From an uncultured Elusimicrobia bacterium (lineage in GTDB: Bacteria > Elusimicrobiota > Elusimicrobia > F11), in NCBI GenBank assembly GCA_964499015.1, contig CAZCJA010000004.1:1-58815 (forward strand): a stretch of DNA of 58,815 nt, given 5' to 3'. The position numbers and the translations under genes are program-made. A model generated the notes under the pieces. That model was not told the DNA's origin. It made no database searches and saw only the letters and a list, made by a program, of their open reading frames with translations. Below, one piece after another: positions 22,843 to 44,402 of the stretch. Within the stretch, counting starts at the first letter, position 1, and the number at the start of each line of letters is the position of its first letter.

Positions 22843-22844
22843 AT

Positions 22845-24398: not shown

Positions 24399-24482
24399 GG
24401 GTCGGTGGCAGAGCGGTCAAATGCACCAGACTGTAAATCTGGCGGGCTACGCCCTACGAAGGTTCGAATCCTTCCCGGCCCA
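24399..24482 (+). tRNA. tRNA-Tyr (anticodon GTA), class II with long variable arm
   Basis: Acceptor GGGTCGG/CCGGCCC (one U-G pair), D-arm GCAGAGCGGTCAAATGC, anticodon loop CTGTAAA, long variable arm GGCGGGCTACGCCCTAC, T-arm GAAGGTTCGAATCCTTC, discriminator A. CCA is not encoded. Confidence 0.9.
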
Positions 24483-24492
24483 TATCCAATTT

Positions 24493-25092
24493 ATGATTCA
24501 ACGCGCGTTACTCCTTATGTTTCCTCTAACCTTGGCCCTTCCGCTGCGCGCGGAACCCTTGACGTTTGCCTTATCGAGTGAGAACGGGCCGCGGCAAATC
24601 CGTTTTACCTCCCAAGCCCCGCTGGAAGTGGTTGAAGGATCGGCTGAAAGCTTTTCCGGAAGCGCCACGCTCGATTTCGATGCCGAACCGGTCATTTCGG
24701 AAGCGTCCGTGTACGTCGAAGTAAAAGGCATGCAGACCGGGGTGCCGCTGCGCGACACTCACATGAAGTCCGCCGAATGGCTGGATGCCGCGGCCTACCC
24801 CAACATTCTTTTCACGCTGACCAGCGTGGGCCTCGCCAAGAAAAAAAACAAAGACACATGGTTTGTGAACGCACAGGGGGGATTTTCAATGCGCGGCATC
24901 AACACAACGGTCGCGGTGCCGCTGACCATCACGCGCAAAAAACGCGGCAAGCAAGAAGAAATCACGGTTTCCGGGCGGTTTAACGTCAAACTTTCGGAAC
25001 ACGGCGTGCGGGGACCGGCGGGAATGCGCATGATCGGCGCGCGCGTCGCGGATGTGGTGCGCGTTGATTTAAAACTTATAGGAATTCGTTAG
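24493..25092 (+). CDS. YceI-family (polyisoprenoid-binding) periplasmic protein
   Basis: Signal peptide MIQRALLLMFPLTLALPLRA. YceI-like blocks VEVKGMQTGVPLRDTHMKSAEWLDAAAYPNILF. The start is set after tRNA-Tyr; the track ORF 24421 overlaps the tRNA. Confidence 0.8.
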   Translation: MIQRALLLMFPLTLALPLRAEPLTFALSSENGPRQIRFTSQAPLEVVEGSAESFSGSATLDFDAEPVISEASVYVEVKGMQTGVPLRDTHMKSAEWLDAAAYPNILFTLTSVGLAKKKNKDTWFVNAQGGFSMRGINTTVAVPLTITRKKRGKQEEITVSGRFNVKLSEHGVRGPAGMRMIGARVADVVRVDLKLIGIR

Positions 25093-27505: not shown

Positions 27506-28804
27506 TTACGGTAGGAAGCGCTCGCGCGCGAAAAGGTTAAACAGCACCTTGCTGCGCAGCGCGGCAAGTTTCGGATCTTCAAATTGTTTGTCCCGTTTCT
27601 TGTCGCGCGGGCTCTCCGTGTAACTCCGCAATAATATCCGCCGCACCACAGGCTCCTTCTCTTTCTTTTTATTTTTTTTGGTGTCGGCGAATGGCGGACG
27701 GTCGCGTTCGGCGCGGACGCGGGCCAGCGCCGCGGCCAGTTGCGGAAGGGCGGCGTCGCGCAAATAAGCGCTGCCGGGCAAGAAGAGCCGGTCGTGCTGC
27801 ATTTCAATCATCATCACCTGTTCGTTCTCGCGAACCGAAATCCATTCGGCGGTCGATTCCAAGTGCGGCACGGGCGGAGAGATTTTGCCGTGCATCAGCG
27901 GCTCATCTTTCAGCGTAACGCCCGGCATCATAATTTCGACGCCGCTTTCAGCGGAGGCTTTCACCGTGATACGGTCGTCGGCAAATTTGCGTCCCAGTGA
28001 TTTTTCCAAATAGGTTTTCCACAGGCGCCGCCGCGCCTCCGCCAAGATTTCGTCGCTCGCGGGTTCGGCCAGCGTCACCGTCCACGAGGACGGATAAAGC
28101 GAGAGCAAGCGCGCCGCATCTTCCAAATACAGCTTGGCTTCGTCGCGGAAGTCGGCGCGGTCTTTTTTGTAAACGCGCGAAGAGAATAAAACCGCGGCTC
28201 CTTCCTCATCGCGCTTAAGCACCGACATAAAGCGGAACGCCTCACCCGGCCAGCTTTCCGCAACGCCGGACGAATGAATAACGATAAAGGAAACATAGGC
28301 GCGGTTGGGGTTCAAAATGAATTGACCGTCGGCCATGCCATCCCACGATTGCTCCGGGACGGGGAAATTTTCACCTTTCTGCTCGTAAACGACGCGGTCG
28401 TTCTCATCCACCACACGGAATTCCCAATACGGCGCTTTCACGTTGGCTGAAGGGGGGGCTGGTAGGGCTTTTCGTTTGGCGCCGGGATCGTTTTTAAACG
28501 GCAGAGCTTGGGCGATAAAAGGGGCGGCGGGAATCATGGGCAAACCGTAGCGGGTGTTGTTGGACAGCGTCGCTTCTTTTACGGCTTCGTCAATACTGAG
28601 CGGAATGACTTCGGATTCAACGGCGGATTTGCCCCCATCCAGCGAGAACGTCAATTCATCGGCGTTGGGAATGTCGGGGTTGGGAGAGAGAGTTTCGAGT
28701 TTCACTTTGCCATGCGCTTCGCCGGAAATGGTGACGTCCAGCGGAGCCGCGGCGGCGTGTGTGTAGAGTGCGAAAACGGTCAAAACGGCGAAGCCGATTT
28801 TCAT
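27506..28804 (-). CDS. hypothetical secreted protein (possible degenerate OmpA-like C-terminal region)
   Basis: Signal peptide MKIGFAVLTVFALYTHAAA. LFLPGSAYLRDAALPQLAAALARV resembles the start of an OmpA/MotB C-domain. 4-nt overlap with the upstream TPR gene. Confidence 0.55.
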   Translation of the reverse strand: MKIGFAVLTVFALYTHAAAAPLDVTISGEAHGKVKLETLSPNPDIPNADELTFSLDGGKSAVESEVIPLSIDEAVKEATLSNNTRYGLPMIPAAPFIAQALPFKNDPGAKRKALPAPPSANVKAPYWEFRVVDENDRVVYEQKGENFPVPEQSWDGMADGQFILNPNRAYVSFIVIHSSGVAESWPGEAFRFMSVLKRDEEGAAVLFSSRVYKKDRADFRDEAKLYLEDAARLLSLYPSSWTVTLAEPASDEILAEARRRLWKTYLEKSLGRKFADDRITVKASAESGVEIMMPGVTLKDEPLMHGKISPPVPHLESTAEWISVRENEQVMMIEMQHDRLFLPGSAYLRDAALPQLAAALARVRAERDRPPFADTKKNKKKEKEPVVRRILLRSYTESPRDKKRDKQFEDPKLAALRSKVLFNLFARERFLP

Positions 28805-31437
28805 TGCACGTCGAGGGGAAGGTCGGCGGCGGTTTGTTCAACGAGCGCTTTGGGCGCCGGCAGCGTCATCTCGGCGACCCGCGCGCCGCTATCGGCCGCG
28901 GGGCGGCTTGGCACGCCGACGTTGGCGTATTGAACAAGCGTCGCGTCCGCCGCGGCGAAGTCTCCGGTGTTGCGGTAGCAGAGAGAAAGGTTTTCACGGG
29001 CGTCGGTGGCCAGTTGGTGAGAGGCGTTCTGAGCTAGAAAGCGTTCAAAGAGTTTGGCCGAGTCGAGCAGGCGGTCCTGCTGGTAAACGGCCACGGCCTG
29101 GTGAAACAGAGCGTTCGCGCTGTTGGCATCGGCGTCACCGTTGGCGAGAAAATGACCGAGCGTTTTCTCGGCATCGAACCATGACTGTGCGAGGTAAAGG
29201 CTTTCGCCGCGATAGAAAAGCACGCTGCGCGATTGTTCGCCGATTGGAAGCGCGCTCAAAACGCCGCTGAACTGCGCGGCGGCCTCATTATATTTTCTCT
29301 CGTTATAAAGTTTCGCGCCTTCCTGCCATTTCAGGTCCGCAATGATTTCCGTCGGCGGCAGGCCTTTCATGGCGAGTTCGATCTCCTCCAGCGCCTTGCC
29401 GCTCTGCGCTTGAGCCGCCGCGAGGTACGGGGTCACCGTCACCATGTCTTCCGTGTCGCGGAATCTCTGCAGGTATGCCGCGTACAAGGGCGCCGCGGCT
29501 TTCATGTCGCCCGCATTGTAGAGAGCGTGCGCCGATTGGAGCATGGCTTCTTTCACACGCGGACTGTTTGGATAGGTTTCGATGTAGTGGGCGAACGTGG
29601 CCACCGCTTCGGCCGCTTTGCCCATTTCAAATTGCGTGCGGCCTGAACGGAACAGCCCGTCTTCGGCCAGCGGGCTTTGCGGATGCAGTGCGGCGAGCTT
29701 GGTCCATACCTCTATGGCGTCGGTGAAGTAATCCAAGCGGTGCAGCGCCAAGCCCTGTTGGAAAAGAGATTTATCGGAGGTGCCCGATTCGCGGTACGCG
29801 GCGATCGCCGGTTCGTACTGGCGGTTGTTGAAAAAAATGTGGCCGCGCTGCAGGTGCGCGAGCGCTTCCCATTCCTTGCGGCCGATATCTTTGGCCGACT
29901 TGGAAAATTCGGCGAGCAGGACCACGGCCTCGCTGGTTTTGTCCAACTGTGCGAGTGCCGCGGCACGTTCAAACTGTGCGTACGGCGTCAGCTCGTGGTC
30001 GGGCAGCGCGGCGGTGAGGAACGAATCGAAGTGGCGGTCTGCTTCGCGCGGGCGGCCCAAGCGCAGGGCGGCTTCGCCGAGCCAAAAAGCCGTGTCGGGC
30101 TGGGCGCGGCGGTTATCGTTCGACAAATTATTCCAGAGGTAGCCGGCGTGCGTGAGAGCTTCCTGGTAGCGGCCGAGGCGGACATAGGCGAGCGTCAGCC
30201 AGTGCGTGGCCTGCGCGGCCGGGATCGAATTAGGGAAACGGTCGGCGATGGTTTGGTAGGTGGCCATCGCGCCGGCGGTCTCGTCTTGTTTTTCCAGCGC
30301 GATGCCTTCCAGAAGAAGCAGGCGCGGAGTCACGTCGGCGTCATAAAAATTTTCGAGGCCTTTTTCGGCTTCGAAAAAGGCGCGCTGGTGTTTGTCGGAC
30401 AGAAGCGCGGCCCACGCGAGATGGTACTGCGATTCGGCGGACGCTTGCGGCGCGCGTTTATCGTCGAGCATGGCCAGCACTTCTTTGTGTTTGCCTGTTT
30501 TCACATAGCTCTCGGCCATCAGCACCGTCATGCGGCCGTCCAGTGTCCCGCGATTCTTGATGAGGGCCAGGCGCGCCAGCGCGTCGTCGTACTTCTTCTC
30601 AGCCATATCTATGGACGCGAGACGAAACACCAGGGAATCCGTGGTCGCGTTTTCCGGATGTGCTGCGAGCGCGGTTTCGCACACTTTGCGCGAGAGGGCG
30701 TGGTCGCCCAGTGAGAAATAAGTTTCGGCGATTTGGTAGTCGGCCAATTCGGTCCAGCGGCCGGTTGCCGATTTTTGTTTGATGCCCTGCCACGCGAGAA
30801 GCGCCTCCGCCGGTTTGTCCATCGCCCGCAGCGTTAGGCCCGTGAAATACTGGGAGCGGCTGTTGTCGGCATCGGCTTTGAAAAGAGGAAGGGCGGCGGC
30901 GTGGTCTTCATTTACGAACGCGGCCAACGCCAAGGGGAACGCGGCGCGGGGGAATTCACTTTCGGTGCCGACGATAGCCTTGAGTTCGGCGGCGCGGATT
31001 TTGGCTTGGGCGGCATCGTTCTTGCGCAAATCACAGAGCAGCAGGTTCGCCACCGCGTCGGCTTTGCGCGGGCTGTCGGTGGCCGCGATTTGAGCGAACA
31101 TTTCTTCGGCGGTTTTCAGGTCGCCGTTCTGGAAAGCGGTTTCGCCGCGGCGCAGGCGGATCTCGTCGCCCAAGGCCGGCGTGATCATTGGGTGTTGGGC
31201 GAGTTCGTTCCATGCTTTTTGCGCGAACGGGATTTGATTTTCAGACAAAATTTCGGCCCAGGTCATGAGCGTGGGCACGTCGGCGTCGGCGCTGGGATAG
31301 GATTTGGCTAGACCGCTGTAGCCCGCGGACGTTTCCACGAGCGCCTGCGGCTCCATTAACAACTGATAGCCCTTTTTAAGGGCCCAATCGTCCGTGGGGC
31401 TGAAGAGGAATGATAAGAAGGCGATCAGTGGATGCAT
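28801..31437 (-). CDS. large TPR-repeat protein (YbgF-like repeats)
   Basis: Numerous 34-aa TPR-like repeats along the whole length. I chose the ATG at 31437, which precedes the hydrophobic MHPLIAFLSFLF. The longest ORF would start at 31557. Confidence 0.7.
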   Translation of the reverse strand: MHPLIAFLSFLFSPTDDWALKKGYQLLMEPQALVETSAGYSGLAKSYPSADADVPTLMTWAEILSENQIPFAQKAWNELAQHPMITPALGDEIRLRRGETAFQNGDLKTAEEMFAQIAATDSPRKADAVANLLLCDLRKNDAAQAKIRAAELKAIVGTESEFPRAAFPLALAAFVNEDHAAALPLFKADADNSRSQYFTGLTLRAMDKPAEALLAWQGIKQKSATGRWTELADYQIAETYFSLGDHALSRKVCETALAAHPENATTDSLVFRLASIDMAEKKYDDALARLALIKNRGTLDGRMTVLMAESYVKTGKHKEVLAMLDDKRAPQASAESQYHLAWAALLSDKHQRAFFEAEKGLENFYDADVTPRLLLLEGIALEKQDETAGAMATYQTIADRFPNSIPAAQATHWLTLAYVRLGRYQEALTHAGYLWNNLSNDNRRAQPDTAFWLGEAALRLGRPREADRHFDSFLTAALPDHELTPYAQFERAAALAQLDKTSEAVVLLAEFSKSAKDIGRKEWEALAHLQRGHIFFNNRQYEPAIAAYRESGTSDKSLFQQGLALHRLDYFTDAIEVWTKLAALHPQSPLAEDGLFRSGRTQFEMGKAAEAVATFAHYIETYPNSPRVKEAMLQSAHALYNAGDMKAAAPLYAAYLQRFRDTEDMVTVTPYLAAAQAQSGKALEEIELAMKGLPPTEIIADLKWQEGAKLYNERKYNEAAAQFSGVLSALPIGEQSRSVLFYRGESLYLAQSWFDAEKTLGHFLANGDADANSANALFHQAVAVYQQDRLLDSAKLFERFLAQNASHQLATDARENLSLCYRNTGDFAAADATLVQYANVGVPSRPAADSGARVAEMTLPAPKALVEQTAADLPLDVQ

Positions 31438-31613
31438 ATAATGTCCTTGATGAAACGTGCTTGCCAAAAACAGCTTAGCCGCAGGATCCGTGTTTTGCCG
31501 CATGACTTTTGGCACAATAAATTGACTTTTAGGGCTTATCAAGCCAAATTGATCCATGGCAAAGCTGTGACAAGGCTATGGCACGGTTCAATTGTTGCAT
31601 GAGGGTTCCCGGA

Positions 31614-32642
31614 ATGAACTCAATAATGACCAAACAAGCGTTTATAACTCTCTTTTTGGCCGGATTCGTCTCCCTTGCTGAGGGAGCGTATGTGGCCAGC
31701 CGCGACTTTTTGTCCATTGGCCATGGGGCTCGTGCGAATGCCATGGGCGAGGCTTTTGTCGCGGTGGCGGATGATAACACGGCCATCTATTGGAATCCAG
31801 CGGGATTAACACAGCTGAAAGAAGACGAGCTTTCCCTCTCTTACTCCGACCGATTTGACGGACTCGCCAATGAAGCCCAGGTTCACTACGCGCGCCGCAC
31901 CCGCAAGGCGATGTGGGGCTTTGGCTACGCCGGTTCCTTTATAAGTGACATCGCCGTTACTCCGTCGTTAACGCAGGCGGATATCGACGCCATTGGCGCC
32001 GGTACCTTCGCGCCGAACGACCACGACCAGCGCAGCGTCTCCGACAACGCTTTTCTCTTTAGTTACGGCCGGCCGATGAGCGTCGATAGTCCACACTCGA
32101 TGGGCGCCACCGTGAAAATCATTTACCGCGATATTTTGGGCATGGTCAAAGGGTATGGTTCGGCGGTCGACGTCGGGTATCACTACGCGTCGCCGCGCAG
32201 CAACTGGCGCTTCGGCACCAATGTGCAGAACGCGGCGAGCATCACCAGTTTCGTCGGTGACATCGACAATTTGGGCGTGCGCGCGACCGCAACCGAGTCC
32301 TATTTACCGACGGCCAAGGTGGGCGTTGCCTATCAGCCGAACATGCGTCTATTAAGCGGAAAACTTTTGTTCGCGTTCGACGCGACGACGCTGTTTTCCT
32401 TTGACGTGGAAGATTACCGGGCGGGCATTGAATACGGCTTCGGCGACGTGGTGACGCTGCGCGCCGGGAAAATTTTCGGACGGCAGGATGATTCGGGCGA
32501 CGACTACACCCTCGGCATGGGCATCGGCATCAAAAGTTTAATTCTCGATTTTTCATTTCTCTCCAACGAGCTGGGAGAGACGACGCGGGCCACCTTGCGC
32601 TGGCGCTTGGGCGGCAATTATTACGAACCGCCGCGATATTAG
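31614..32642 (+). CDS. PorV/PorQ-like outer-membrane beta-barrel
   Basis: Signal-like MNSIMTKQAFITLFLAGFVSLAEG, then GARANAMGEAFVAVADDNTAIYWNPAGL, the same motif as in the 26528..27427 protein. Beta-barrel-like alternation. Start could be 31578, 31614 or 31626. Confidence 0.6.
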   Translation: MNSIMTKQAFITLFLAGFVSLAEGAYVASRDFLSIGHGARANAMGEAFVAVADDNTAIYWNPAGLTQLKEDELSLSYSDRFDGLANEAQVHYARRTRKAMWGFGYAGSFISDIAVTPSLTQADIDAIGAGTFAPNDHDQRSVSDNAFLFSYGRPMSVDSPHSMGATVKIIYRDILGMVKGYGSAVDVGYHYASPRSNWRFGTNVQNAASITSFVGDIDNLGVRATATESYLPTAKVGVAYQPNMRLLSGKLLFAFDATTLFSFDVEDYRAGIEYGFGDVVTLRAGKIFGRQDDSGDDYTLGMGIGIKSLILDFSFLSNELGETTRATLRWRLGGNYYEPPRY

Positions 32643-32688: not shown

Positions 32689-33420
32689 ATGAAACTCCTC
32701 AAAAAATCAACGTTATTTGTGTTTCTGGCGGCCGCGCCGTTTCGACTTTGGGCGGCCAACGGAATTTTGGATTACGACCGATTTATGCGAGACATTGAGC
32801 CGATCATAACGACGACGACGTTCAGCAGCCCCGGGCCGACGCAGATGTCGTGCTTCAGCTGCCACGGCATTTCCACGCACGCGGCGTACACGGCGTTCCC
32901 GCTCGTCTTGGGTCAATCGCGCGCCAATTTCACGGAAGCGGCCCGCCAGGTTTCCATTGAAGACCCCGACGTGAGCCTGTTGCTTTTGAAACCGTTGGCC
33001 TTGGCGGCGGGCGGCGTGCCGCACGGTCAGTTGGCCAATGATGGCGGCGAACAATTCTCGACGACGCAGAGCGCGCATTTCCGGGTGATCCAGCAGTGGA
33101 TAGTTGACGCCACCCGCGCCAGTGTGGGCGCGCGCGTCACGCGTTCGGCCGCGTACCCGAATCCGTTTCGCGCCGAAACGAAAATCGTTTACTTCCTCAC
33201 CACCGAAGCGATCGAAACCGAAGTCACTCTTTTCTCCATGGAAGGCCGCGTGCTGCGCCGCTATGACGGCACGACGCGTGTTGGCGCCAATTTCGTGACC
33301 TGGGACGGACGCGATGAGGAACTTGAACCGTTGCCGACCGGCGTATATGTTTACCAGGTCCGCGCCAAATTTGACGATGGGACGTTCGTGCATAAAGGAA
33401 GCTGCGTCTACACGCCGTAG
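32689..33420 (+). CDS. secreted CxxCH-module protein with T9SS type-A-like CTD
   Basis: Signal peptide, CFSCH (nt 32851-32865), later VIQQWIVDA. The C-terminal AYPNPFRAETKIVYFL...VTLFSMEGRVL...WDGRDE...GVYVYQV matches the Por secretion tail consensus. Confidence 0.7.
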   Translation: MKLLKKSTLFVFLAAAPFRLWAANGILDYDRFMRDIEPIITTTTFSSPGPTQMSCFSCHGISTHAAYTAFPLVLGQSRANFTEAARQVSIEDPDVSLLLLKPLALAAGGVPHGQLANDGGEQFSTTQSAHFRVIQQWIVDATRASVGARVTRSAAYPNPFRAETKIVYFLTTEAIETEVTLFSMEGRVLRRYDGTTRVGANFVTWDGRDEELEPLPTGVYVYQVRAKFDDGTFVHKGSCVYTP

Positions 33421-33428
33421 GAGAACGA

Positions 33429-36400
33429 ATGATCAAACGGTTTAACATCAAGACATGGTTCATGCCCGCTCTGGTGGTGGTGTTCATCGGCGGCCTTCTG
33501 GGCGTGCGCGGCAAGACCGAAAAGGTTGAAGCCTATCCGGGCAGTAATTTGCGGCGCATGGTCGATGAGACCTGCGGCGCCTGCCATAACAATATGCACG
33601 TGCGGGCTCCCGGCGACTACAGTTTGGATTCGGGCGCTCTGGCCAAAACGCCGGGCGTGCTCGCAACCTCGCTCGGCATTGCCGATCCCACCGCTTTCGC
33701 CGCCGGCAGCACCGATCCCTTGACCGCGCTCATTATTCAGAAACCGATGGACGGCTCCGTCATGCCGCACGGCGGCATAAAAATTTCTTCGACCACGGCG
33801 GTAATGCAGGCGCTCATTGATTGGGTGAATAACGGTGCGCCTGCGGTGGACATGAACCGCGCGGCCCAACCGGCGGTTGCCTATCGTGCCGGCGTTGGCG
33901 CGGGCGAACACGAGATTGTCTACAGCCGCCGCACTTATCGCCGCCAGGGTTTCAACAGTTTGACCAATTATATGGCCGGTGGCGATTTGTACCGGATGCG
34001 TTTTACCCATGACGTCAGCACGACAACTCCAAACCCAATTACTCCCGGACAGCACGTCAATTTAACCGGCGGCGTTTGCTCCGATGTTCAGAACCCGACC
34101 GTATCGCTGGATGGAACAATGGTGGCGTTTGCCTGCAAACAAGGCGGACAGCCGTGGCAGATTTGGGAAATCGGCATTGACGGTACCGGCGCGCGCGCCA
34201 TCACCTCGGGCCCGGGCAATAAAATTCAGCCGGTGTATTTGCCGTATCTTCCCGACGGCACCGAAGCGGGCGACGGTTCTGGCGGCGTCGCTTACTTAAG
34301 CGACGTGGTCGGCTTCCGTGACGAATACGACCAGGGGGCCACGCTTGCCTTGTTTGTTTGCGATACCAACGGCAATAACACGCGCCAAATCGATTTCAAT
34401 CCGAGCCACGGCCTTCACCCGACGCTGCATTCCAGCGGCATGCTGATCTTCACGCGCTGGCAGCACAACGAACACCAGGGCCATAACTTCATGCCGCTGC
34501 ATCAAATGTCTATTTCCGACTACGCGACGGCCGGCACCAATTTATTCGGCGCGTACGGCGAACACGGCAGTTTGGGCCCGAGCGGCACCAATTCTTTGCA
34601 CGAAAGCGCCGAAATGATCGATCCGGCGGACGCGGCACAGGCGGGCTACATGATTGCGCGCGGCAGCGGCCGTGATGACGACGGCGGATCCATCGTCGGC
34701 CCGTTCTTGCCGAAGCTGGTCGGCTCCGTGGCGGCGCCGCCGACCACGAACGTGATCATGCGCGGGGAAAACGTTAATCGCCGCGGTGAAATGGGAATGA
34801 TGGCGTATATGAGCTCCGTCACTTTTCGCGAGCCGACGTCGCTTTTGGAAGACCTTTTTGTCGTGAGCGTGGCGACGCTGACGCACGTGACGGAAGAATT
34901 CAACACGTTCACGATGACCACCGAAACCACGCGCCACTTCGGCCATTTCGCTTTGCAGACGTTTACGCTTTCCGCGTCGAGCCAGCAAGTGTTGACGCAG
35001 ACGCCGCTTTTGGAAGTCGCGGGCATGACCGTGGACGAAGCGGTCCCCGTTTTGGTGCGGCCGATGCCGCCCAAAATCGGCAAACCGGTCGACCTCACAA
35101 AATTTACGGGCACATTTACCAGCGGTAACGTCACCGACCGCCAAAACGACAACCAACCCCGCGGCTTTACTGTGGATGACGTCTCTGTCGTGCGCTTTAT
35201 CCGTTCACTCCAGCTTTCGCAAGGCCGAATCGATACGGGCAAGCGGCGCGGCATCTCCACTCAAATTGTGGGCGAAGCCACGATTTCCAGCGACGGCTCA
35301 TTCTCGGCGCTGGTGCCGGCGAATGTGCCGATGCAATTCCAATTGATTGATAAAAACGGCCGCGTGCTGGTGAACCATAAGCCGTGGATCCACGTCGCCC
35401 CGGGCGCGACCGAACGCTGCGTGGGCTGCCATGCGACGCACAATCAAGCGCCGGCCGTGCAAACGCTTGAGGCGCGCCAGTTGCCCTCTCAGAACATCGA
35501 GGCGCGCCGCGTTACGCAATTCCATTTCCATCAGGACATTCAGCCGATTTTGAACGAGAACTGCATTTCCTGTCATGACAGCGCCAACGTGCAGGGCGCC
35601 TCCGGCTACAACCCCAACCGCGCGGGCAGCCAGGCCATCAGCTTGGTCGGCCGCTTCACGCCGGCAAACGTGACCGAGTCGTATCAGACACTGACCGGCA
35701 TCTCGCGCGACCGCAGCAACAGCGCGCTTGTGCGCACGCAGAATTCGCGCGGCAGCCCACTGATGCACTGGCTCACAGGCTCTTTGTTGACGGCGACGCC
35801 GCCCACCCCGTTCCCGAACCCGGCGGCGTTGGTCGACCACTCGCAAATGCTGGACGAAGATGAGCTCGATAAGATTGCCCGCTGGATCGACACCGGCACC
35901 AATTTCCGCGTCGTCGAAGACAACACGGCGAACGCTTTGCAGGCGCTCAGCACCAGCACGTACGCCAACGTCATCTGGCCGATTATGGAGGGCCGCGGCT
36001 GCGCCACGTGTCATGGAGACGGCGGAGCGGGACAGAACGCGATGGATTTGTCGGAAGGAGACGCCGAAGACGAAGAAGAGGCGATGGAAATGCGCATGGA
36101 GGCGCTCGCCGAACAAATGAATTTCATGATTCCTGAGGCAAGCCCGCTGCTGCGCAAGCCGCTTGGCGAAGCCTTGGGCGGAGTGTCCCACGTCGGCGGC
36201 CAGATCTGGACCGGTGTTAACGACCCCGATTACCTTTCGATCTATCAATGGATCGCCACCAGCAATCCGCAGCTTAACCCCGCGGCTGCTCCGAACGTCA
36301 GCGACCTGACGAACGTGGAAAATTATCCGAATCCGTTCCGCGACACCACGCAGTTCGTGTATCGCTTAAACGGTGTGGTGGCGACCAAGGTGGACCTCGA

Positions 36401-36611
36401 AATTTATTCCGTTAACGGGAAGCTCGTGCGGGAGTTGAGCGGTTCCACGATGACCGGCGGAGCGACGATGGGCTGGAATTCAATACCCTGGGACGGCAAG
36501 GATAAAAACGGTAAAGTGGTTTCCAATGATGTTTATTTCTTCGTGCTTAAGGCCGAATTCGGTGACGGGGCCAAAAAGAAAATCCGCGGCAAATGCGTAA
36601 AAGTCAACTAA
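33429..36611 (+). CDS. 1060-aa secreted protein: four CxxCH modules + PD40/TolB-like beta-propeller region + T9SS type-A-like CTD
   Basis: CGACH (33573-33587), CVGCH (35418-35432), CISCH (35562-35576), CATCH (35999-36013). Each is followed 60-100 aa later by a xxWIxxG motif (LIDWVNNGAP, IARWIDTGT, IYQWIATS). PD40-like DGTMVAFACKQGGQPWQIWEIGIDGTGARAITSG. CTD NYPNPFRDTTQFVYRL...LEIYSVNGKLV...WDGKDKNG...DVYFFVL. Confidence 0.8.
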   Translation: MIKRFNIKTWFMPALVVVFIGGLLGVRGKTEKVEAYPGSNLRRMVDETCGACHNNMHVRAPGDYSLDSGALAKTPGVLATSLGIADPTAFAAGSTDPLTALIIQKPMDGSVMPHGGIKISSTTAVMQALIDWVNNGAPAVDMNRAAQPAVAYRAGVGAGEHEIVYSRRTYRRQGFNSLTNYMAGGDLYRMRFTHDVSTTTPNPITPGQHVNLTGGVCSDVQNPTVSLDGTMVAFACKQGGQPWQIWEIGIDGTGARAITSGPGNKIQPVYLPYLPDGTEAGDGSGGVAYLSDVVGFRDEYDQGATLALFVCDTNGNNTRQIDFNPSHGLHPTLHSSGMLIFTRWQHNEHQGHNFMPLHQMSISDYATAGTNLFGAYGEHGSLGPSGTNSLHESAEMIDPADAAQAGYMIARGSGRDDDGGSIVGPFLPKLVGSVAAPPTTNVIMRGENVNRRGEMGMMAYMSSVTFREPTSLLEDLFVVSVATLTHVTEEFNTFTMTTETTRHFGHFALQTFTLSASSQQVLTQTPLLEVAGMTVDEAVPVLVRPMPPKIGKPVDLTKFTGTFTSGNVTDRQNDNQPRGFTVDDVSVVRFIRSLQLSQGRIDTGKRRGISTQIVGEATISSDGSFSALVPANVPMQFQLIDKNGRVLVNHKPWIHVAPGATERCVGCHATHNQAPAVQTLEARQLPSQNIEARRVTQFHFHQDIQPILNENCISCHDSANVQGASGYNPNRAGSQAISLVGRFTPANVTESYQTLTGISRDRSNSALVRTQNSRGSPLMHWLTGSLLTATPPTPFPNPAALVDHSQMLDEDELDKIARWIDTGTNFRVVEDNTANALQALSTSTYANVIWPIMEGRGCATCHGDGGAGQNAMDLSEGDAEDEEEAMEMRMEALAEQMNFMIPEASPLLRKPLGEALGGVSHVGGQIWTGVNDPDYLSIYQWIATSNPQLNPAAAPNVSDLTNVENYPNPFRDTTQFVYRLNGVVATKVDLEIYSVNGKLVRELSGSTMTGGATMGWNSIPWDGKDKNGKVVSNDVYFFVLKAEFGDGAKKKIRGKCVKVN

Positions 36612-37036
36612 TCGCAATCGCGGCCCTCTTCCTTTTTTCCTGCACCAAAGAAAAACGAAGCGCAATCTCGAACAACTCCATTACCAACCCACCCGGCGCC
36701 GCTAACTTCACGAGTTTGCAGACGGACATTTTCGCGCTGAGCTGCGCGGTTTCCGGCTGCCACGATAACCGCGCCACGCCCGCCGGCAATTTAAATTTGT
36801 CCAGCGTCGATAAAAGCCACGCGGCGATTGTCAATATCGCCAGCGTTCAGGTGCCCTCGAAAGCGTTGGTTGTGCCCAACGATCCGGCCAATAGCTACTT
36901 CTTGGCGAAATTAGACGGGACGTATTCGGCTCTGGGGGGGAACGGCGTTCGCATGCCGCAGTTTGCGGCGGCGCTGTCTCAGGAAGATTTGGACCGGATT
37001 ATCACGTGGATTAACAACGGCGCGCCGAAGGATTAA
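36593..37036 (+). CDS. small lipoprotein consisting of one Cx4CH...WIxxGAP module
   Basis: Lipobox LFLFSC. SCAVSGCH (36743-36763)...LVVPNDPANSYFLAKL...RMP...LSQEDLDRIITWINNGAPKD is collinear with Planctomycete-type cytochrome-c-like (PSCyt1-like) domains. Overlaps the end of the upstream gene by 19 nt. Confidence 0.7.
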   Translation: MRKSQLIAIAALFLFSCTKEKRSAISNNSITNPPGAANFTSLQTDIFALSCAVSGCHDNRATPAGNLNLSSVDKSHAAIVNIASVQVPSKALVVPNDPANSYFLAKLDGTYSALGGNGVRMPQFAAALSQEDLDRIITWINNGAPKD

Positions 37037-37040
37037 GACG

Positions 37041-38138
37041 CTAAAAGAAGAAGTGGGTTTGTATGGCTACGTCGTCGTTGGAACGTTCCGTTGGTTGTTC
37101 GCGATTGTTACGGTAAAACGCCTCAATATTCAAATGATCGGCCGGCGACACCTGCAGGCTGGCCACCCACCGCTCCAATAAATCCGCCGACAGCGAACGA
37201 TTGGGATCCAGACGCTCGTAGCGAATTTTGGCGTAGCTTCGCCATTTTTTGACGGGCGTTTGAAAATTGTACACGAGTTCGGCGTACGACGCGGAGCTTT
37301 GCGTCGAGCCTGTCACCGTGAATTGTTCGTCCTCGCCCTCGTCGTGTTCAAATAATAACGCGAACGGCCCCGCTCTCAGCCAGCCGAATCCGCCGTAGCG
37401 CAAAATCCGCCGGTCTTCCACTTCGTTGTCGTTGGTGTACATCGATCCGCCGAGGCTGGCGTGTTTGGTGATGAAGCCCGCGCGGCGCGTCACCGCGCGT
37501 TTGTTGCCGCCCTGGCTGTTCGGCAGGGAGCGCGATTCTTGTCCGATCACACCGGCCGTCATGGCAATGTTCACGAACCAGGGGCGGCCGTTGTAGCCGG
37601 CTTCGATGCCCGAATCTTTGTAGCGCACGCCGAAAAGCTTGGCGCCAATGCCGCGTTCTTCGAAATTGCGGGAGCTCGTTTCCACGCGGCCTTCCTTAAT
37701 GAACGATGTGTGGTCGGCAAACAGGAGGCCGTAAGGAAGAGTGAAGAAGCCGGCGCGGACGTACAGGCTCTGATTGACGTTGTGCAGCATCGCCCACATC
37801 TCGCGCAGCGTGCCGAAATCCTGGCTGGCCGAAATGGTGAGCGTGTCTTTAAGGAGATAGCCGAAATGGAGCGCGCCTTCCATGGGGAAAAGCACCACGC
37901 GGTCGTCGGCCGGGTCGCGCGCGTCATAGAGGAACATGAAGCGCAGGTCGCCGCTCATGAAGAACTTATCGGTGATGTAGCCGGGGTCCATCTGGCTGGT
38001 CGGCTTGCGGCCAAAACCGCCCATCGGGCCGACGTGACAGGCCATACAATTCGAACCGCTGAACGCGGAATATTCGGGATAGGCAAAAAGAGGGGAAGCG
38101 CAGGTGAAAAATAAAATCGCGGCGATTAGGTGTCTCAC
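37041..38138 (-). CDS. outer-membrane beta-barrel protein with N-terminal CxxCH motif
   Basis: Signal peptide MRHLIAAILFFTCASPLFA. CMACH at aa ~31-35 (nt ~38034-38048). Alternating-strand pattern with a C-terminal ...AIQTHFFF aromatic terminus typical of OMPs. Confidence 0.7.
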   Translation of the reverse strand: MRHLIAAILFFTCASPLFAYPEYSAFSGSNCMACHVGPMGGFGRKPTSQMDPGYITDKFFMSGDLRFMFLYDARDPADDRVVLFPMEGALHFGYLLKDTLTISASQDFGTLREMWAMLHNVNQSLYVRAGFFTLPYGLLFADHTSFIKEGRVETSSRNFEERGIGAKLFGVRYKDSGIEAGYNGRPWFVNIAMTAGVIGQESRSLPNSQGGNKRAVTRRAGFITKHASLGGSMYTNDNEVEDRRILRYGGFGWLRAGPFALLFEHDEGEDEQFTVTGSTQSSASYAELVYNFQTPVKKWRSYAKIRYERLDPNRSLSADLLERWVASLQVSPADHLNIEAFYRNNREQPTERSNDDVAIQTHFFF

Positions 38139-38226
38139 GGCTGGTGAGTATAAACGAAGTGAACGCGCCCAAGCAAGAAGTGCGTTGCGTTAATGTAGGG
38201 GCTTGAATTTTCCTCGATATGGGGTC

Positions 38227-38655
38227 ATGTTTAAGAACAAACAACCTATGGTCCAACGAAAATTAACACGTTTTTTCGTCATTAACCCGCGTCCTGACCG
38301 CCGCATCGAATCGCGCTATTCCGCGCGGACGGACGTGGTGGTCAAATTGGCAGATGGGCCGTCCGACAATAAAATCCAGCCGGCCGTGGCCTATGAAGTG
38401 GGACAATTCGGCATGAGGTTGGAGATTGCAGCTAAACTCGCTCCCGGAACCCAAATCCAAGTGGCGTTTCCAAACACGCTCGACAACGTGCGCTGTTTCG
38501 GCCGCGTGATTTGGACTCAGGTCTCCAAGGCGGGGCCCGGACACGAGTCCGGGTTGGCTATCGATAACTGGTACGGCATTACCGACGGGCCGGCCTCGTG
38601 GAAAAAATTCGTCGGGCCCCACCCCAAAAAAGACCGCCGCATTATTAAACGCTAG
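38227..38655 (+). CDS. PilZ-domain protein (c-di-GMP receptor candidate)
   Basis: RRIESR (RxxxR) followed about 30 aa later by YEVGQFGMRL (DxSxxG-like). ATG at 38227 chosen; the track start is a TTG at 38203. Confidence 0.65.
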   Translation: MFKNKQPMVQRKLTRFFVINPRPDRRIESRYSARTDVVVKLADGPSDNKIQPAVAYEVGQFGMRLEIAAKLAPGTQIQVAFPNTLDNVRCFGRVIWTQVSKAGPGHESGLAIDNWYGITDGPASWKKFVGPHPKKDRRIIKR

Positions 38656-38673: not shown

Positions 38674-39123
38674 TCAGCGCGTTTTAAGCTGAACTGAATC
38701 TCCCGCCTTGAGGCTGCCGATCCGCGTCCGTTTTCCGTTAACCGTCATCGACGTGCGGTTGTTGAGCGTAACGTCATGTACTTGGCCGCTGGCATCACGA
38801 ATGCTCACGCGATTGTTTGCCGAGTCGACGGTTTCAACGGTTCCGTTAATGTTGCCGGTTCCAGCCGATCTGCCTTTTGGGGTGCTTTTATTGATTCCAC
38901 CTTCAGTGGGAACCATTCCGGTTTCCGGAGATGTTTTTGAGTTTCCGGTATCGCTGACGTTTGGTTCAACGCCTGTCGCATCGTTCTGCCGTACCGGATT
39001 TATTTCGCGCGGCGACACCTGCCCCGGGGGATTGGTGGTTGGGCTGTCGGCGGATTTAGCGGTCACGTTCAGGCCCAATAAAGCGAAGCTGGTTAGAACG
39101 GTCCATTTTGTTGAGTTCTTCAT
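38674..39123 (-). CDS. hypothetical secreted protein (disordered P/T/N-rich linker + small beta domain)
   Basis: AAGGAGG SD 4 nt upstream of the ATG. Signal peptide MKNSTKWTVLTSFALLGLNVTA. Confidence 0.55.
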   Translation of the reverse strand: MKNSTKWTVLTSFALLGLNVTAKSADSPTTNPPGQVSPREINPVRQNDATGVEPNVSDTGNSKTSPETGMVPTEGGINKSTPKGRSAGTGNINGTVETVDSANNRVSIRDASGQVHDVTLNNRTSMTVNGKRTRIGSLKAGDSVQLKTR

Positions 39124-39153
39124 ACGTCCTCCTTGTTTATGTTTGGCTTAAAG

Positions 39154-39261
39154 TTAAAGAGTTCCGGCTTCGGCGGCGCGTTTTAGTTTTTCGTTGGCAA
39201 TGATGGCCACTTCGACGCGTCGGTTAGCGGTGCGCACGGCGTCCACCCGCGCAGCCTGTTC
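39154..39261 (-). pseudogene. possible relic of an OmpA-family C-terminus
   Basis: The minus-strand frame reads EQAARVDAVRTANRRVEVAIIANEKLKRAAEAGTL*, where NRRVEV is the hallmark end of OmpA/MotB domains. It is preceded by an in-frame TAG (39262-39264), and no OmpA-like sequence lies upstream in any frame. Confidence 0.3.
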
Positions 39262-39319
39262 CTAATTATTAATGAAATGAAAATTGGTGCGGTCGTTGCT
39301 TTTGTGTTCATGCCAGAAA

Positions 39320-39343
39320 TACGCGGGCCGCACGTGAAAGTTC
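39320..39343 (-). promoter_or_regulatory. putative ECF-sigma-type promoter GAACT-N15-CGTA (leftward)
   Basis: The minus strand reads GAAC tttcacgtgcggcccg CGTA with a 16-nt spacer. It lies back-to-back with the rightward copy, 23 bp away. Confidence 0.45.
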
Positions 39344-39366
39344 AACGTAAATTTCGCGCGTGGTTC

Positions 39367-39390
39367 GAACTAGTTTTAACACGCCACGTA
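39367..39390 (+). promoter_or_regulatory. putative ECF-sigma-type promoter GAACT-N15-CGTA (rightward, lipoprotein-dps operon)
   Basis: GAAC tagttttaacacgcca CGTA. It lies about 40 nt upstream of the ATG at 39431. Confidence 0.45.
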
Positions 39391-39430
39391 GTTTCCGTGT
39401 AGGCAACGAAATGACAGGAGGGATAATGAA

Positions 39431-39616
39431 ATGGACAAACGCAAAAACAAAACAAATCTCTGGATGATTTTAACCGCGCTCGCGCTCGTGCAGATCGGCG
39501 TGGGCTGCAAACCGCAGATGACGGGGCAAAAAATTGAAGATAAAGCGGAAGACGTCGGCCATGAAGTGGAACAAGGCATCGAGCGAGCCAAAGAAAATGT
39601 CAAAGAGGCGAAATAA
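39431..39616 (+). CDS. small lipoprotein (61 aa), K/E-rich helical tail
   Basis: GGAGGG SD 8 nt upstream of the ATG. Lipobox IGVGC. Confidence 0.5.
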   Translation: MDKRKNKTNLWMILTALALVQIGVGCKPQMTGQKIEDKAEDVGHEVEQGIERAKENVKEAK

Positions 39617-39639
39617 CGATTCAGACAGAAGGAGAGCAT

Positions 39640-40116
39640 ATGACCACGGAAACGAAGGAAAGAGAAAAAACGGCCACAAACGAAGTGGCCCAGAAAATGC
39701 AGGAATTTTTGGCGGGCATCTACACGCTTTACGTCAAAACGCAAAACTTTCACTGGAACGTAACGGGGCCGCTTTTTCCGCAGCTGCATGAGCTCTTCGA
39801 TAAGCAATATAAGGAACTGGCCGTGGAGATTGATGAGGTCGCCGAGCAGATCCGGTCCATGGGGTTTTTCGTACCGGCTTCTTTGGTCGCTTTCGAAGAA
39901 ATTTCCCACGTCCAGGATCAGAAGGGGGCTCCCATGCCTGCGCAGGAAATGATCCGAATTTTGGTTCAAGACCATCAGGCGATCGTCGAAGAAGGCAAGG
40001 AGCTCTTTAATTTGCTGGAAGATCATAATGATCCGGCAACGTCCGATTTGGTGATTGATTCGGTGAAGCGCCACCAGAAAAACGCATGGATGCTGCGCAG
40101 TTCATTAGAAAAATAA
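39640..40116 (+). CDS. dps: Dps-family DNA-protection/ferritin-like protein
   Basis: LYVKTQNFHWNVTGPLFPQLHELFDKQY...IDEVAEQIRSMG ferroxidase-site pattern of Dps. Confidence 0.9.
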   Translation: MTTETKEREKTATNEVAQKMQEFLAGIYTLYVKTQNFHWNVTGPLFPQLHELFDKQYKELAVEIDEVAEQIRSMGFFVPASLVAFEEISHVQDQKGAPMPAQEMIRILVQDHQAIVEEGKELFNLLEDHNDPATSDLVIDSVKRHQKNAWMLRSSLEK

Positions 40117-40135
40117 ACAACGGGAGGAGTTAAAC

Positions 40136-40720
40136 GTGACCAAATACATAAAGACGACATTCTTATCGGTTCTGGCGCTATCCGCATTCGCGGTGATCAC
40201 GCCGGCCGCTAACGCACAAGAAGGCGATGACCGTGGTTTTTCCATCGGCGGCCGTGGTTCGCATTTTGATCCAAAGGACGGAGACGGTCAGTGGAGCGGC
40301 GGCGCGCAGCTGCGCTTCTTTTTATCCGACACGTTCGCGCTCGAAGGTTCGGCGGATTTCCGCCGCGACGAATACGACACCATTCTCGGCGAAACCGAGG
40401 TGCAAACCATCCCGGTGCAGGCGTCCATCCTGGGTTATTTGATTAAAGCCAATCCCGTCGGCGTTTTTTTCCTCGCGGGTCCCGGTTGGTATTACACGCG
40501 CATCGAACCGCCGTCGCCATTCGACGACAAAACCGATCATCGGTTCGGATTCCATGCGGGCGGCGGTGTTGAAGTCCGTTTGAATGAATCCTGGTCCATT
40601 GACGGCACGTATCGCCACATCTGGCTGGAAGAATTTGAATCGCAGGATTCGAGCGTGAGTGAAAAAGAGTTTGACGACAGCGGTGAGATGATCACCGTCG
40701 GTTTAAACCTTAGCTTCTAA
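40136..40720 (+). CDS. outer-membrane beta-barrel protein (OmpA-like TM barrel/OmpW-size)
   Basis: GTG start. Signal peptide ending AANAQ. Alternating strands with a C-terminal ...VGLNLSF. Confidence 0.7.
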   Translation: MTKYIKTTFLSVLALSAFAVITPAANAQEGDDRGFSIGGRGSHFDPKDGDGQWSGGAQLRFFLSDTFALEGSADFRRDEYDTILGETEVQTIPVQASILGYLIKANPVGVFFLAGPGWYYTRIEPPSPFDDKTDHRFGFHAGGGVEVRLNESWSIDGTYRHIWLEEFESQDSSVSEKEFDDSGEMITVGLNLSF

Positions 40721-40742
40721 CGAAACAAACACAGGAGGGCAT

Positions 40743-41096
40743 ATGAACATTGAGAAAACGATCAATAATGTGGATAAAAAGCTTAAAGCTGGGGAAGACG
40801 CGGCCTACGATAAAGTTGACGCGGCGCGCCGCCAGGGCAAAGAGTGGGCAGAAGACGCCGCTGGCGCGGCTGAAGAGCGCATGGACTTGGTGCGTGAAAC
40901 CCTTGAGGAATCATGGGACAAAGCCAAAAAAACCGGCGCGAACATTGAGAAAAAAATCGAGGAATACGGCAAGCAGGGCCTGAAAAGCGCCCAGCAGTAC
41001 ACGCAGAAGAACCCGTTGAAAGTCGTGGGCATCGCGCTCGCGCTCGGCGTCGTTCTCGGCGGCGCCCTTTGGGCCGCGGCTTCGTCCAAAGAATAA
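40743..41096 (+). CDS. ElaB/YqjD/DUF883-family membrane-anchored stress protein
   Basis: Charged helical N-region plus the C-terminal anchor NPLKVVGIALALGVVLGGAL. Confidence 0.75.
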   Translation: MNIEKTINNVDKKLKAGEDAAYDKVDAARRQGKEWAEDAAGAAEERMDLVRETLEESWDKAKKTGANIEKKIEEYGKQGLKSAQQYTQKNPLKVVGIALALGVVLGGALWAAASSKE

Positions 41097-41554: not shown

Positions 41555-41565
41555 CTAAAAGCCCC

Positions 41566-41589
41566 GAACTCTTTACTTCATGTGCCGTA
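41566..41589 (+). promoter_or_regulatory. putative ECF-sigma-type promoter GAACT-N15-CGTA (sod-sigma operon)
   Basis: GAAC tctttacttcatgtgc CGTA. It lies about 38 nt upstream of the ATG at 41627. Confidence 0.45.
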
Positions 41590-41626
41590 ACTTGGGTGTA
41601 GAAAACAGTGTAATAGAGGGTTAAAA

Positions 41627-42256: not shown

Positions 42257-42311
42257 CCGCGCTCGCTGAGTATAATGGCGGGCACTGGTTCATGCTGTAA
42301 AAGGGGAAACG

Positions 42312-42872: not shown

Positions 42873-42886
42873 GGAGAGGTAAATTT

Positions 42887-44378: not shown

Positions 44379-44402
44379 TATTTTCCTAACATAGCCGCCA
44401 TC

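Follow-up and report, generated by a model that had tools for sequence, protein, structure and literature searches.

What might four neighbouring genes, each carrying a heme c-type motif, be doing together in an uncultured Elusimicrobia bacterium? These genes lie at positions 32,689 to 38,138 of contig CAZCJA010000004.1 (assembly GCA_964499015.1), and we analysed the whole contig (58,815 nucleotides, hereafter the window). As delimited in the list of open reading frames (ORFs), they are predicted to encode a 243-aa secreted monoheme cytochrome (32689..33420, + strand), a 1060-aa HzsA-like tetraheme protein (33429..36611, +), a 147-aa lipoprotein monoheme cytochrome (36593..37036, +, overlapping the upstream 1060-aa gene by 19 nt) and a 365-aa fused monoheme cytochrome-porin (37041..38138, −, with a GTG start). 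The three plus-strand cytochrome genes are tightly packed and co-directional, and the barrel gene is convergent with this operon. We see about an even chance that the cluster is an outer-membrane or extracellular electron-transfer module, possibly one for Fe(II) oxidation. The initial annotation had taken these four genes as the unit; the genes are as it described them, whereas the unit is larger, with a PorV/PorQ-family gene, a TPR protein and a 432-aa protein that are syntenic with them.

Every heme c-type motif that had been listed for the cluster was present, with the position of one (CATCH) corrected by a single base, from 35999 to 36000. The motifs are CFSCH at residue 55 of the 243-aa protein (nt 32851); CGACH, CVGCH, CISCH and CATCH at residues 49, 664, 712 and 858 of the 1060-aa protein (nt 33573, 35418, 35562 and 36000); CAVSGCH, a CX4CH motif, at residue 51 of the 147-aa protein (nt 36743); and CMACH at residues 31–35 of the 365-aa barrel (nt 38048–38034). 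The four proteins therefore hold 6 CxxCH motifs and one CX4CH in 1,815 aa, while the other 40 genes of the window hold no CxxCH in 16,104 aa (amino-acid composition expectation 0.0012). Conservation among homologues had been proposed as a check, and the heme Cys and His residues were invariant or ≥ 90% conserved across 6–19 orthologues per protein. They were invariant in the 19 aligned orthologues of the barrel, in 6 orthologues each of the 243-aa and 147-aa proteins and in the 15 orthologues of the 1060-aa protein (full or partial, 47–70% identical), with the exception in the latter of C858, C861 and H862 (≥ 90%). A WIxxG(A/T) sequence had been described after each motif; it follows five of the six plus-strand motifs, 82–105 aa further on, and is missing after CVGCH because this motif is part of the middle (HZS_alpha) domain of the 1060-aa protein, which is rich in beta structure. 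The lipoprotein and the outer-membrane barrel do each carry a motif of their own, the former having an LFSC lipobox (C17 invariant) and the latter a barrel fold by AlphaFold2 (AF2) and Foldseek. Judged from sequence, the motifs of the cluster are almost certainly c-type heme sites, because their host domains are related to cytochromes of known structure (HzsA, 5c2v; probably also FoxE, 5mab) and because the Cys/His residues and candidate distal ligands are invariant.

The 365-aa barrel matched no Pfam or NCBIfam model, and comparison of its sequence to the PDB gave nothing meaningful. Its AF2 model is a beta-barrel (predicted local distance difference test (pLDDT) 60.1, predicted template modelling score (pTM) 0.65), for which Foldseek gave a probability of 1.0 to 16-strand porins, including OprP (2o4v, template modelling score (TM) 0.57) and OprO (4rjw). 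OprO and OprP are also the templates that have been used for the porin domain of Cyc2, for which the published criteria are a signal peptide with one CXXCH, the sequence AXPXFAR[Q/K][T/Y] upstream and PXL downstream (PMC8406198). In our barrel the signal peptide MRHLIAAILFFTCASPLFA is followed by YPEY...C31MACH35, which contains the sole CxxCH of the protein, and then by the 16-strand OprO/OprP-like porin; the length is exactly 365 aa, where the Cyc2 criterion is ≥ 365 aa. We found 36 close relatives of the barrel, and the residues P21, E22, A25, N30, C31, C34, H35, G37, P38, G40, G41, G43 and R44 were invariant in 19 orthologues. It should be noted that in public gene calls this barrel and several orthologues (P0017, P0019, P0026 and P0038) are 333–334 aa long and start at the Met inside CMACH, so that the signal peptide and first heme Cys are lost and the heme motif is hidden. 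The 365-aa reading from the GTG start is backed by upstream sequence that is conserved in the 19 orthologues.

We compared the barrel to a set of Cyc2 genes gathered from metagenomes by DNA pattern, which comprised 63 full-length proteins of approximately 390–545 aa. The consensus of this set was 'AvPsFARQTGxxCxxCHtxfPeLTpFGRxFK', the Cyc2-motif proteins continuing after the heme as CH-T-x-F-P-E-L-T-P-F-G-R. The heme segment of the barrel, 'AYPEYSAFSGSNCMACHVGPMGGFGRKP', has the A, P, aromatic, A and G positions and the distance to the first Cys as in the Cyc2 set. At full length the barrel family aligned to the Cyc2 set at 98.5% (E = 2e−15, 334 columns), the orthologues of the window protein at 94.9% over 44 N-terminal columns only, and the heme segment alone, without the signal peptide, at 91–95%; the control, in which other cytochrome modules were aligned to the Cyc2 heme segment, reached 38%. 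Features shared with Cyc2 of Acidithiobacillus ferrooxidans and Mariprofundus PV-1 (PMC8406198) are a single CxxCH soon after the cleavage site, fused straight to a porin of approximately 16 strands, the A-x-P-x-aromatic-A-x5-C spacing and the presence of adjoining small periplasmic cytochromes. Unlike Cyc2, the barrel lacks R[Q/K][T/Y] and the downstream PxL, reading AYPEYSAFSGSNCMACHVGPMGGFGR, and has 365 aa compared to 420–530 aa in the collected Cyc2-motif proteins. We conclude that the barrel is built like Cyc2, with a heme segment that resembles that of Cyc2 specifically, and that it falls outside Cyc2 as published; a sister family is its probable place. One Elusimicrobiota genome bin has been reported to encode a Cyc2 homologue (PMC8357290).

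The barrel family is large: an exhaustive profile search recovered at least 570 clusters at 50% identity (E ≤ 1e−3), 171 of which had E ≤ 1e−10. An N-terminal CxxCH was found in 130 of the 148 top members, typically as 'A.P[RY]FA..TG..C..CHVNPTGGG.RN', and the strict Cyc2 motif (P.FAR[QK][TY]) in none of these 148. Porins of this family are approximately 350–415 aa long, and where members are named, they derive from Nitrospiraceae, Ignavibacteria and Ignavibacteriales genome bins.

The CxxCH...WIxxGA modules of the other proteins had been labelled PSCyt1-like, a label which did not hold: the best score to Pfam PF07635 was 13.9 bits (cut-off 22, E = 0.085), for the 147-aa protein only, and the other modules had no match. 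Profile comparison shows the module to be a genuine domain that occurs repeatedly, and among solved structures FoxE comes closest to it. One domain family (hhalign 95–99%) includes the module of the 243-aa protein (residues 24–146, nt 32758–33126, +; CFSCH at 55, candidate distal His112) and two modules of the 1060-aa protein, an N-terminal one (residues 36–146, 33534..33866, +; CGACH at 49, His114; 95% to the other modules) and a C-terminal one, M4 (residues 838–950, 35940..36278, +; CATCH at 858, His921). The latter aligned to the module of the 243-aa protein at 99% (E = 9e−18) and passed the Pfam PccH model (26.2 bits, cut-off 24.4). The alphaII-like domain of the 1060-aa protein and the 147-aa protein are related to the repeated module at 89–96% in profile-profile comparison. 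Across the module paralogues the two Cys and the His of the motif, a Pro (usually Lys-Pro), a second His, a Gly and the Trp of 'WI' are invariant. When the module profile (A5) was searched against the PDB, the best match was FoxE (5mab_A, whole-sequence E = 4e−6), with both heme domains aligned end to end, WIxxGA helices included, followed by PccH (E = 0.079) and HzsA (E = 0.23). A large protein search with this profile returned a single fragment.

The candidate ligands differ between the modules. In the 243-aa protein C55, C58, H59 and H112 are invariant (6 orthologues), as are C49, C52, H53 and H114 in the N-terminal module of the 1060-aa protein; the candidate distal ligands His114 (in 'PHGG') and His921 (in 'SHVGG') show full or almost full conservation. 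At the distal-ligand position, where FoxE has a Met (RMP), an invariant His is found in three of the five WIxxGA modules. In the 147-aa protein C17 (the lipobox Cys), C51, C56, H57 and M121 are invariant (6 orthologues), and His/Met ligation via Met121 in RMPQ is probable. A profile of this protein had zero matches in the PDB; it is homologous to the A5 module (95.7%) and aligned at 96.8% to a canonical-CxxCH cytochrome found beside a related barrel in an Ignavibacteriales genome bin, and its CX4CH looks like a modified form of the usual heme site. Both heme domains of FoxE of Rhodobacter ferrooxidans SW2 (5MAB) align over the whole module, and its RMP-type Met region is also seen in the 147-aa protein. 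FoxE itself is diheme, soluble and periplasmic, and its hemes have His/Met ligation. The cluster modules, by contrast, are single, with His replacing Met in three and CX4CH used in one, the fusion partner being a sorting tail, a lipid anchor or an HzsA-like core.

This core belongs to the 1060-aa protein, which is an HzsA-like propeller/heme protein with two extra heme modules and a type IX secretion system (T9SS) type-A-like tail. Its family profile aligned to HzsA (5c2v_A) with E = 8.6e−30 across the propeller, middle and C-terminal domains, and HzsA was also the top Foldseek match to its AF2 model (pLDDT 60.6; E = 1.6e−23, 828 columns), the next being TolB at approximately 1e−5. The search for a hydrazine-synthase-alpha-like domain that the initial annotation had proposed was positive (PF18582, 60.7 bits, cut-off 26.6), and the PD40/TolB-like propeller that it had noticed was recovered as a weak NCBIfam match and in the TolB matches of Foldseek. 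The HzsA-/TolB-like beta-propeller, placed by Foldseek and the family profile, occupies residues ~150–560 (33876..35108, +); profile positions 211–341 align to HzsA residues 76–247, and the best-predicted segment is at residues 150–290 (pLDDT ~70–90). It is followed by the HZS_alpha middle domain (35226..35507, +), with a heme-alphaI-type CVGCH (664–668) and then His671, in which C664, C667, H668 and H671 are invariant, and by a heme-alphaII-like C-terminal domain (35508..35918, +), with CISCH at 712–716 and ending in ARWIDTG, which aligns to HzsA residues 636–767 (E = 8.4e−14) and gave a partial match to NF052339. HzsA of Kuenenia stuttgartiensis (5C2V) has the same order of propeller, heme-alphaI middle domain and heme-alphaII domain ending in a WIxxGA helix. 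It is a soluble anammoxosome enzyme, whereas the 1060-aa protein carries a T9SS-type tail.

Where in the cell would these proteins reside? Two of them had been described as bearing T9SS type-A tails, and we agree. The C-terminal domain of the 243-aa protein (residues ~150–243, nt 33136–33417, +) passes TIGR04183 (32.8 bits, cut-off 23) and Pfam FlgD_ig (28.0 bits, cut-off 27). That of the 1060-aa protein (36306..36611, +, stop codon included) falls just short of TIGR04183 (21.4 bits) and is PorU-like, scoring 44.2 bits to the PorU C-terminal region (NF033707 positions 995–1091); its family profile also matches the C-terminal domain of PorU in 6za2 (E = 5.8e−5). Both tails resemble the C-terminal regions of PorU and PorZ, proteins that keep their tails and that PorV and PorQ anchor at the surface. 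The plus-strand operon opens with a gene (31578..32642, +; the real start is probably a few codons 3' of 31578) that encodes an outer-membrane barrel of the PorV/PorQ family (NF033709, 117.9 bits, cut-off 90; UPF0164, 23.2 bits, cut-off 21.4), with syntenic orthologues which are 61–77% identical. It missed the equivalog models for PorV (56.6 bits, cut-off 250), PorQ (55.3, cut-off 220) and PorV2 (108.5, cut-off 325).

A second PorV/PorQ-family gene (26528–27427, −; NF033709, 126.9 bits) lies directly upstream of an alkaline phosphatase gene (25089–26531, −) with a weak type-A tail match (TIGR04183, 20.0 bits, cut-off 23), forming a cassette of the same logic as the cytochrome operon, and another T9SS-type tail is found on a 428-aa protein (531–1817). 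This lineage may habitually pair tail-tagged cargo with a dedicated PorV/PorQ paralogue. Together, the tails and PorV/PorQ genes favour a T9SS-like route with cargo-specific anchors. The type-A cargo of Bacteroidota, with its PorU-PorV and PorZ-PorQ pairs, shares with the cluster the type-A-like tails and the adjacent PorV/PorQ-family gene. Unlike the Bacteroidota system, the carriers are labelled as Elusimicrobiota, the cargo consists of c-type cytochromes and the PorV/PorQ paralogue is dedicated to the cargo operon.

Relatives of the barrel are found in comparable company. Beside them we found a cupredoxin-like protein and a diheme cytochrome c (locus L129), a 542-aa P460/cytochrome c protein with three CxxCH motifs (L130) and two small cytochromes ending in 'WINEGAP' and 'WIAQGAKK' (L131). 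Locus L132 encodes an 877-aa protein (3174–5807) with a choice-of-anchor-V domain, one CxxCH and a T9SS type-A tail, and L133 a 1287-aa choice-of-anchor-V CxxCH protein (3297–7160) with a PorZ-like tail, together with a PorV/PorQ-family gene (142.8 bits) and a GEGP-diheme-like protein. The choice-of-anchor V domains of the L132 and L133 proteins share a conserved 'GRTGSPGDG..CA.CH', and these proteins may be surface heme proteins, apparently uncharacterised. A parts list with interchangeable cargo thus recurs: a heme porin, a PorV/PorQ-type barrel, a tail-tagged heme protein and a small cytochrome. This recurrence is the strongest argument for the genes acting together, and for the tails and the PorV-like gene being part of the redox function.

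Taken together, these features suggest the following arrangement. The 243-aa and 1060-aa proteins would be exported by Sec and loaded with heme in the periplasm, and their type-A-like C-terminal domains would bring them to the surface via a T9SS-type route, where the PorV/PorQ-family barrel of the operon would keep them docked, in the way that PorV and PorQ retain PorU and PorZ. An extracellular redox substrate could be met there by the surface hemes, as well as by the HzsA-like protein at its propeller/heme-alphaI site. The 365-aa porin would hold one c-type heme by its N-terminal segment, in a Cyc2-like arrangement, and this heme would link the surface proteins, or a dissolved substrate in the pore, to the 147-aa lipoprotein cytochrome as the periplasmic partner of the porin. 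With Fe(II) as the preferred substrate, electrons would run through the porin heme to the periplasm, i.e. electron uptake; we prefer Fe(II) since two of the parts have an iron oxidase as their closest characterised relative, Cyc2 in one case and FoxE in the other. Fe(II) oxidation has been shown for cells expressing Cyc2 of Mariprofundus PV-1. What the sequences themselves show is the gene content and its conservation, the invariance of the heme motifs, the relationships by fold and family, and the parts list that recurs beside related barrels; from these we infer that the proteins carry heme, where they lie, which partners touch, what the substrate is and which way electrons run.

Such a module is distinct from the Mtr/Pcc porin-cytochromes, as had been claimed, with no more than 4 heme motifs per protein and a porin of approximately 16 strands. 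An Mtr/Pcc-type conduit, in which a periplasmic multiheme cytochrome (8–10 hemes) lies within a separate 20–26-strand barrel, was rejected on its heme counts and barrel size, and the score to Pfam MtrC/MtrF was 26.7 bits (cut-off 30). MtrCAB, PioAB and PcoAB share with the cluster the proposed topology of periplasmic cytochrome, outer-membrane barrel and surface cytochromes; unlike them, the cluster has no decaheme protein and no 26-strand MtrB-type barrel, and the heme is within the porin polypeptide. The surface cytochromes of Shewanella use type II secretion, and the cluster proteins bear T9SS-type tails instead. The barrel has the architecture of the fused cytochrome-porin Cyc2, so the cluster is not far from a known system.

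Several points weigh against a surface module for electron uptake. The AF2 models of the barrel and the 1060-aa protein are only moderately confident (pLDDT ~60). In place of AXPXFAR[Q/K][T/Y] the barrel reads A-Y-P-E-Y-S-A-F-S, keeping the A, P, aromatic, A and their spacing, and in place of PXL it reads CH-VG-P-M-G-G-F-G-R, with the Pro and no Leu. When only the barrel portion was compared to the Cyc2 set, the barrel family reached 15.8% and the orthologues of the window protein 0.2%, neither of which is significant, and homology to Cyc2 would rest on approximately 22 columns and a common architecture. The per-domain matches of the A5 profile to FoxE are weak (E = 0.16 and E = 1.9). Three modules appear to be bis-His, which suits electron export at least as well as Fe(II) oxidation, as bis-His ligation usually means a low potential. 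With one heme only, a 16-strand porin may not connect protein partners at its two faces. Bacteria that lack a T9SS can also have PorV-like (UPF0164/FadL-like) barrels, and there are no T9SS core genes, ccm or ccs on the 58.8-kb window, which is the whole contig. Free-living Elusimicrobia are reported to possess NrfAH, NirS, alternative complex III and cytochrome c oxidases (10.1101/765248), and cytochrome c maturation is therefore plausible in the phylum.

The whole system could instead be periplasmic, with FlgD-Ig-like tails docking the cytochromes to the inner face of the PorV-like barrel or to another partner, the porin admitting dissolved Fe2+ and the HzsA-like protein serving as a periplasmic redox enzyme or electron sink. 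We regard this as rather unlikely. It would agree with the lack of a T9SS core gene in the window and in the flanks of related contigs that were read, with the tail of the 1060-aa protein lying just below the TIGR04183 cut-off and with the fact that we found no report of a T9SS in Elusimicrobia in the literature searched. The PorV-like protein also passes Pfam UPF0164, a family defined on Treponema proteins. Both HzsA and FoxE, moreover, are soluble and located off the cell surface (PMC12758564, PMC10654088). Against it, the tail of the 243-aa protein passes a curated T9SS type-A model, and both tails are like the C-terminal domains by which PorU and PorZ bind PorV and PorQ at the surface. In addition, this one 59-kb contig holds three proteins with such C-terminal domains and two PorV/PorQ genes, and related barrels adjoin choice-of-anchor-V proteins, a class defined by alternative surface-anchoring signals.

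The same topology could also operate in reverse, exporting respiratory electrons to Fe(III)/Mn(IV) minerals, humics or a partner cell as in MtrCAB, with other parts. This too seems rather unlikely to us. The invariant distal His in three of the five WIxxGA modules is in its favour, and a tetraheme HzsA-like protein with a monoheme partner could make a short surface wire. The match of module M4 to the Pfam PccH model can be read both ways, as PccH has been linked to electron uptake, not export. One more distant relative of the barrel is accompanied by a cupredoxin and a c4-like diheme cytochrome, a context resembling the rus operon of Fe(II) oxidisers. No inner-membrane quinol dehydrogenase (CymA/NrfH/ImcH-type) was found in the block, and Cyc2 and FoxE are iron oxidases (PMC8406198), which argues for uptake.

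A catalytic role for the HzsA-like protein in the conversion or detoxification of NO, hydroxylamine or hydrazine, with the small cytochromes as redox partners and the barrel as a substrate porin, is in our view very unlikely. The whole domain order of HzsA is kept, including the heme-alphaI catalytic-site motif and the propeller, and nitrogen-oxide enzymes are present in some free-living Elusimicrobia (10.1101/765248). However, unlike HzsA, the protein has FoxE-like modules at both ends and no HzsBC partner: HzsB/HzsC genes (gamma-type, CCP-like) were not found in the window or on the five syntenic contigs. Tyr591, the proximal ligand of heme-alphaI in HzsA (CSGCHYGSY), is missing in the aligned 1060-aa family, which has CVGCHAxH[S/D/N] instead, with His671 invariant. 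A true hydrazine synthase was rejected on these two absences and on the score to the equivalog model NF052339 (68.6 bits, cut-off 800). A 2025 survey found that non-anammox 'HZS_alpha domain-containing' homologues, of which more than 600 are without known function, lack key residues (PMC12758564).

Finally, that the CxxCH motifs bind no heme and are metal-binding or disulfide motifs in domains of other function, as the weak single-sequence Pfam cytochrome matches would allow, can be discounted almost entirely, given that they lie in domains homologous to the crystallographically defined c-type heme domains of HzsA and probably FoxE, that the Cys, Cys, His and distal His/Met are invariant in orthologues and paralogues, and that all four proteins have export signals.

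If the cluster does act as an outer-surface electron-transfer module, it could represent something broader. We hold it as a real but tentative possibility that there is a widespread, undescribed class of extracellular electron-transfer systems in which tail-tagged heme proteins sit on PorV/PorQ-type anchors and are wired to the periplasm via Cyc2-sister monoheme porins, the cargo being an HzsA-like tetraheme and a FoxE-like monoheme protein here and choice-of-anchor V CxxCH proteins elsewhere. The large orphan HZS_alpha family would then gain its first functional context, a surface redox role would become testable for more than 600 HzsA homologues, and it would be suggested that hydrazine synthase alpha evolved from a cell-surface redox enzyme. 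The delivery of redox cofactors to the surface by a T9SS-type tail and a PorV/PorQ anchor would be a new route; we found no paper on T9SS-tagged c-type cytochromes or T9SS-linked extracellular electron transfer in the literature searched. The principle of Cyc2 would extend to at least 570 clusters at 50% identity which current Cyc2 definitions filter out, and the iron- and electron-cycling potential of Ignavibacteria, Nitrospiraceae and Elusimicrobiota-like lineages may have been underestimated. It should be noted that the single parts are not categorically new, and that the NCBI 'choice-of-anchor V' model indicates that annotators had already noticed CxxCH domains joined to such tails. The novelty lies in the combination, in cytochromes that bear sorting tails and have a PorV/PorQ gene dedicated to them, in the occurrence of an HzsA-like protein in such a setting and in the size of the barrel family outside the Cyc2 definition.

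The cluster is embedded in a conserved gene order, which we found on five other contigs: YceI, an approximately 430-aa protein (−), an approximately 900-aa TPR protein (−), the PorV-like barrel (+), an approximately 245-aa tailed cytochrome (+), the HzsA-like protein (+), an approximately 150-aa lipoprotein (+) and an approximately 370-aa barrel (−). The species-representative genomes carrying the cluster are labelled as Elusimicrobia/Elusimicrobiota genome bins (~51% identity), and the source of the window would therefore probably lie in this phylum or close to it. A promoter and terminator scan of the cluster gave counts no higher than shuffled controls. In the window, a 918-aa TPR protein (28801..31557, −), divergent from the cytochrome operon and syntenic on 5/5 related contigs, is of the YbgF/BamD type (TIGR02795, 123.7 bits; TIGR03302, 86.2 bits), with a weak PorW/SprE-like match (NF052312, 46.9 bits, cut-off 250). 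The 432-aa secreted protein (27506..28804, −), also a member of the block, has a signal-peptide-like N-terminus and zero Pfam or NCBIfam matches, and a gene of 421–449 aa occupies the equivalent position on 5/5 related contigs. By eye, its C-terminal ~100 residues resemble OmpA-like peptidoglycan-binding domains ('LFLPGSAYL...ILLRSYTES...LAALRSKVLFNLF').

On the other side of the cluster, a 150-aa PilZ-domain protein (38203..38655, +; PF07238, 22.1 bits, cut-off 22.5) is encoded next to the barrel, as it is on 4/5 related contigs. The YceI-like gene (24421..25092, +; PF04264, 75.3 bits) is directly beside the ~430-aa gene on 5/5 related contigs, and in the window is set apart from the block by the phosphatase/PorV cassette. 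The YceI family binds polyisoprenoids or quinones, and a link to the redox function of the cluster is conceivable. A tRNA-Tyr (24399–24482) overlaps the 5' end of the longest YceI ORF, and the true start is therefore further downstream.

Between the PilZ gene and folP, positions 38674–44378 hold stress-type genes and genes without a family. These include a Dps/ferritin-like protein (39640–40116), a small outer-membrane beta-barrel (40136–40720), a DUF883 protein, a 149-aa secreted protein without a family, an Fe/Mn superoxide dismutase (41627–42256), an ECF sigma factor (42312–42872) and a 343-aa protein without a family match (43347–44378). On related contigs L003 and L005 folP directly follows PilZ, and this block therefore looks like a lineage-specific insertion. 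At the start of the window, two giant ORFs (1308 and 2502 aa; 1817–13357, +) come after the tailed 428-aa protein; they gave weak carbohydrate-binding, phosphoesterase and ChaN-like matches only, and may represent a surface or adhesin locus. AT skew was strongly negative at 22001–24000 (−0.27) and 44001–46000 (−0.19), stretches which coincide with genes at 22830–24350 (weak PMT_2 glycosyltransferase) and 44403–46193 (DUF4153); these dips may be a codon-composition effect of membrane proteins.

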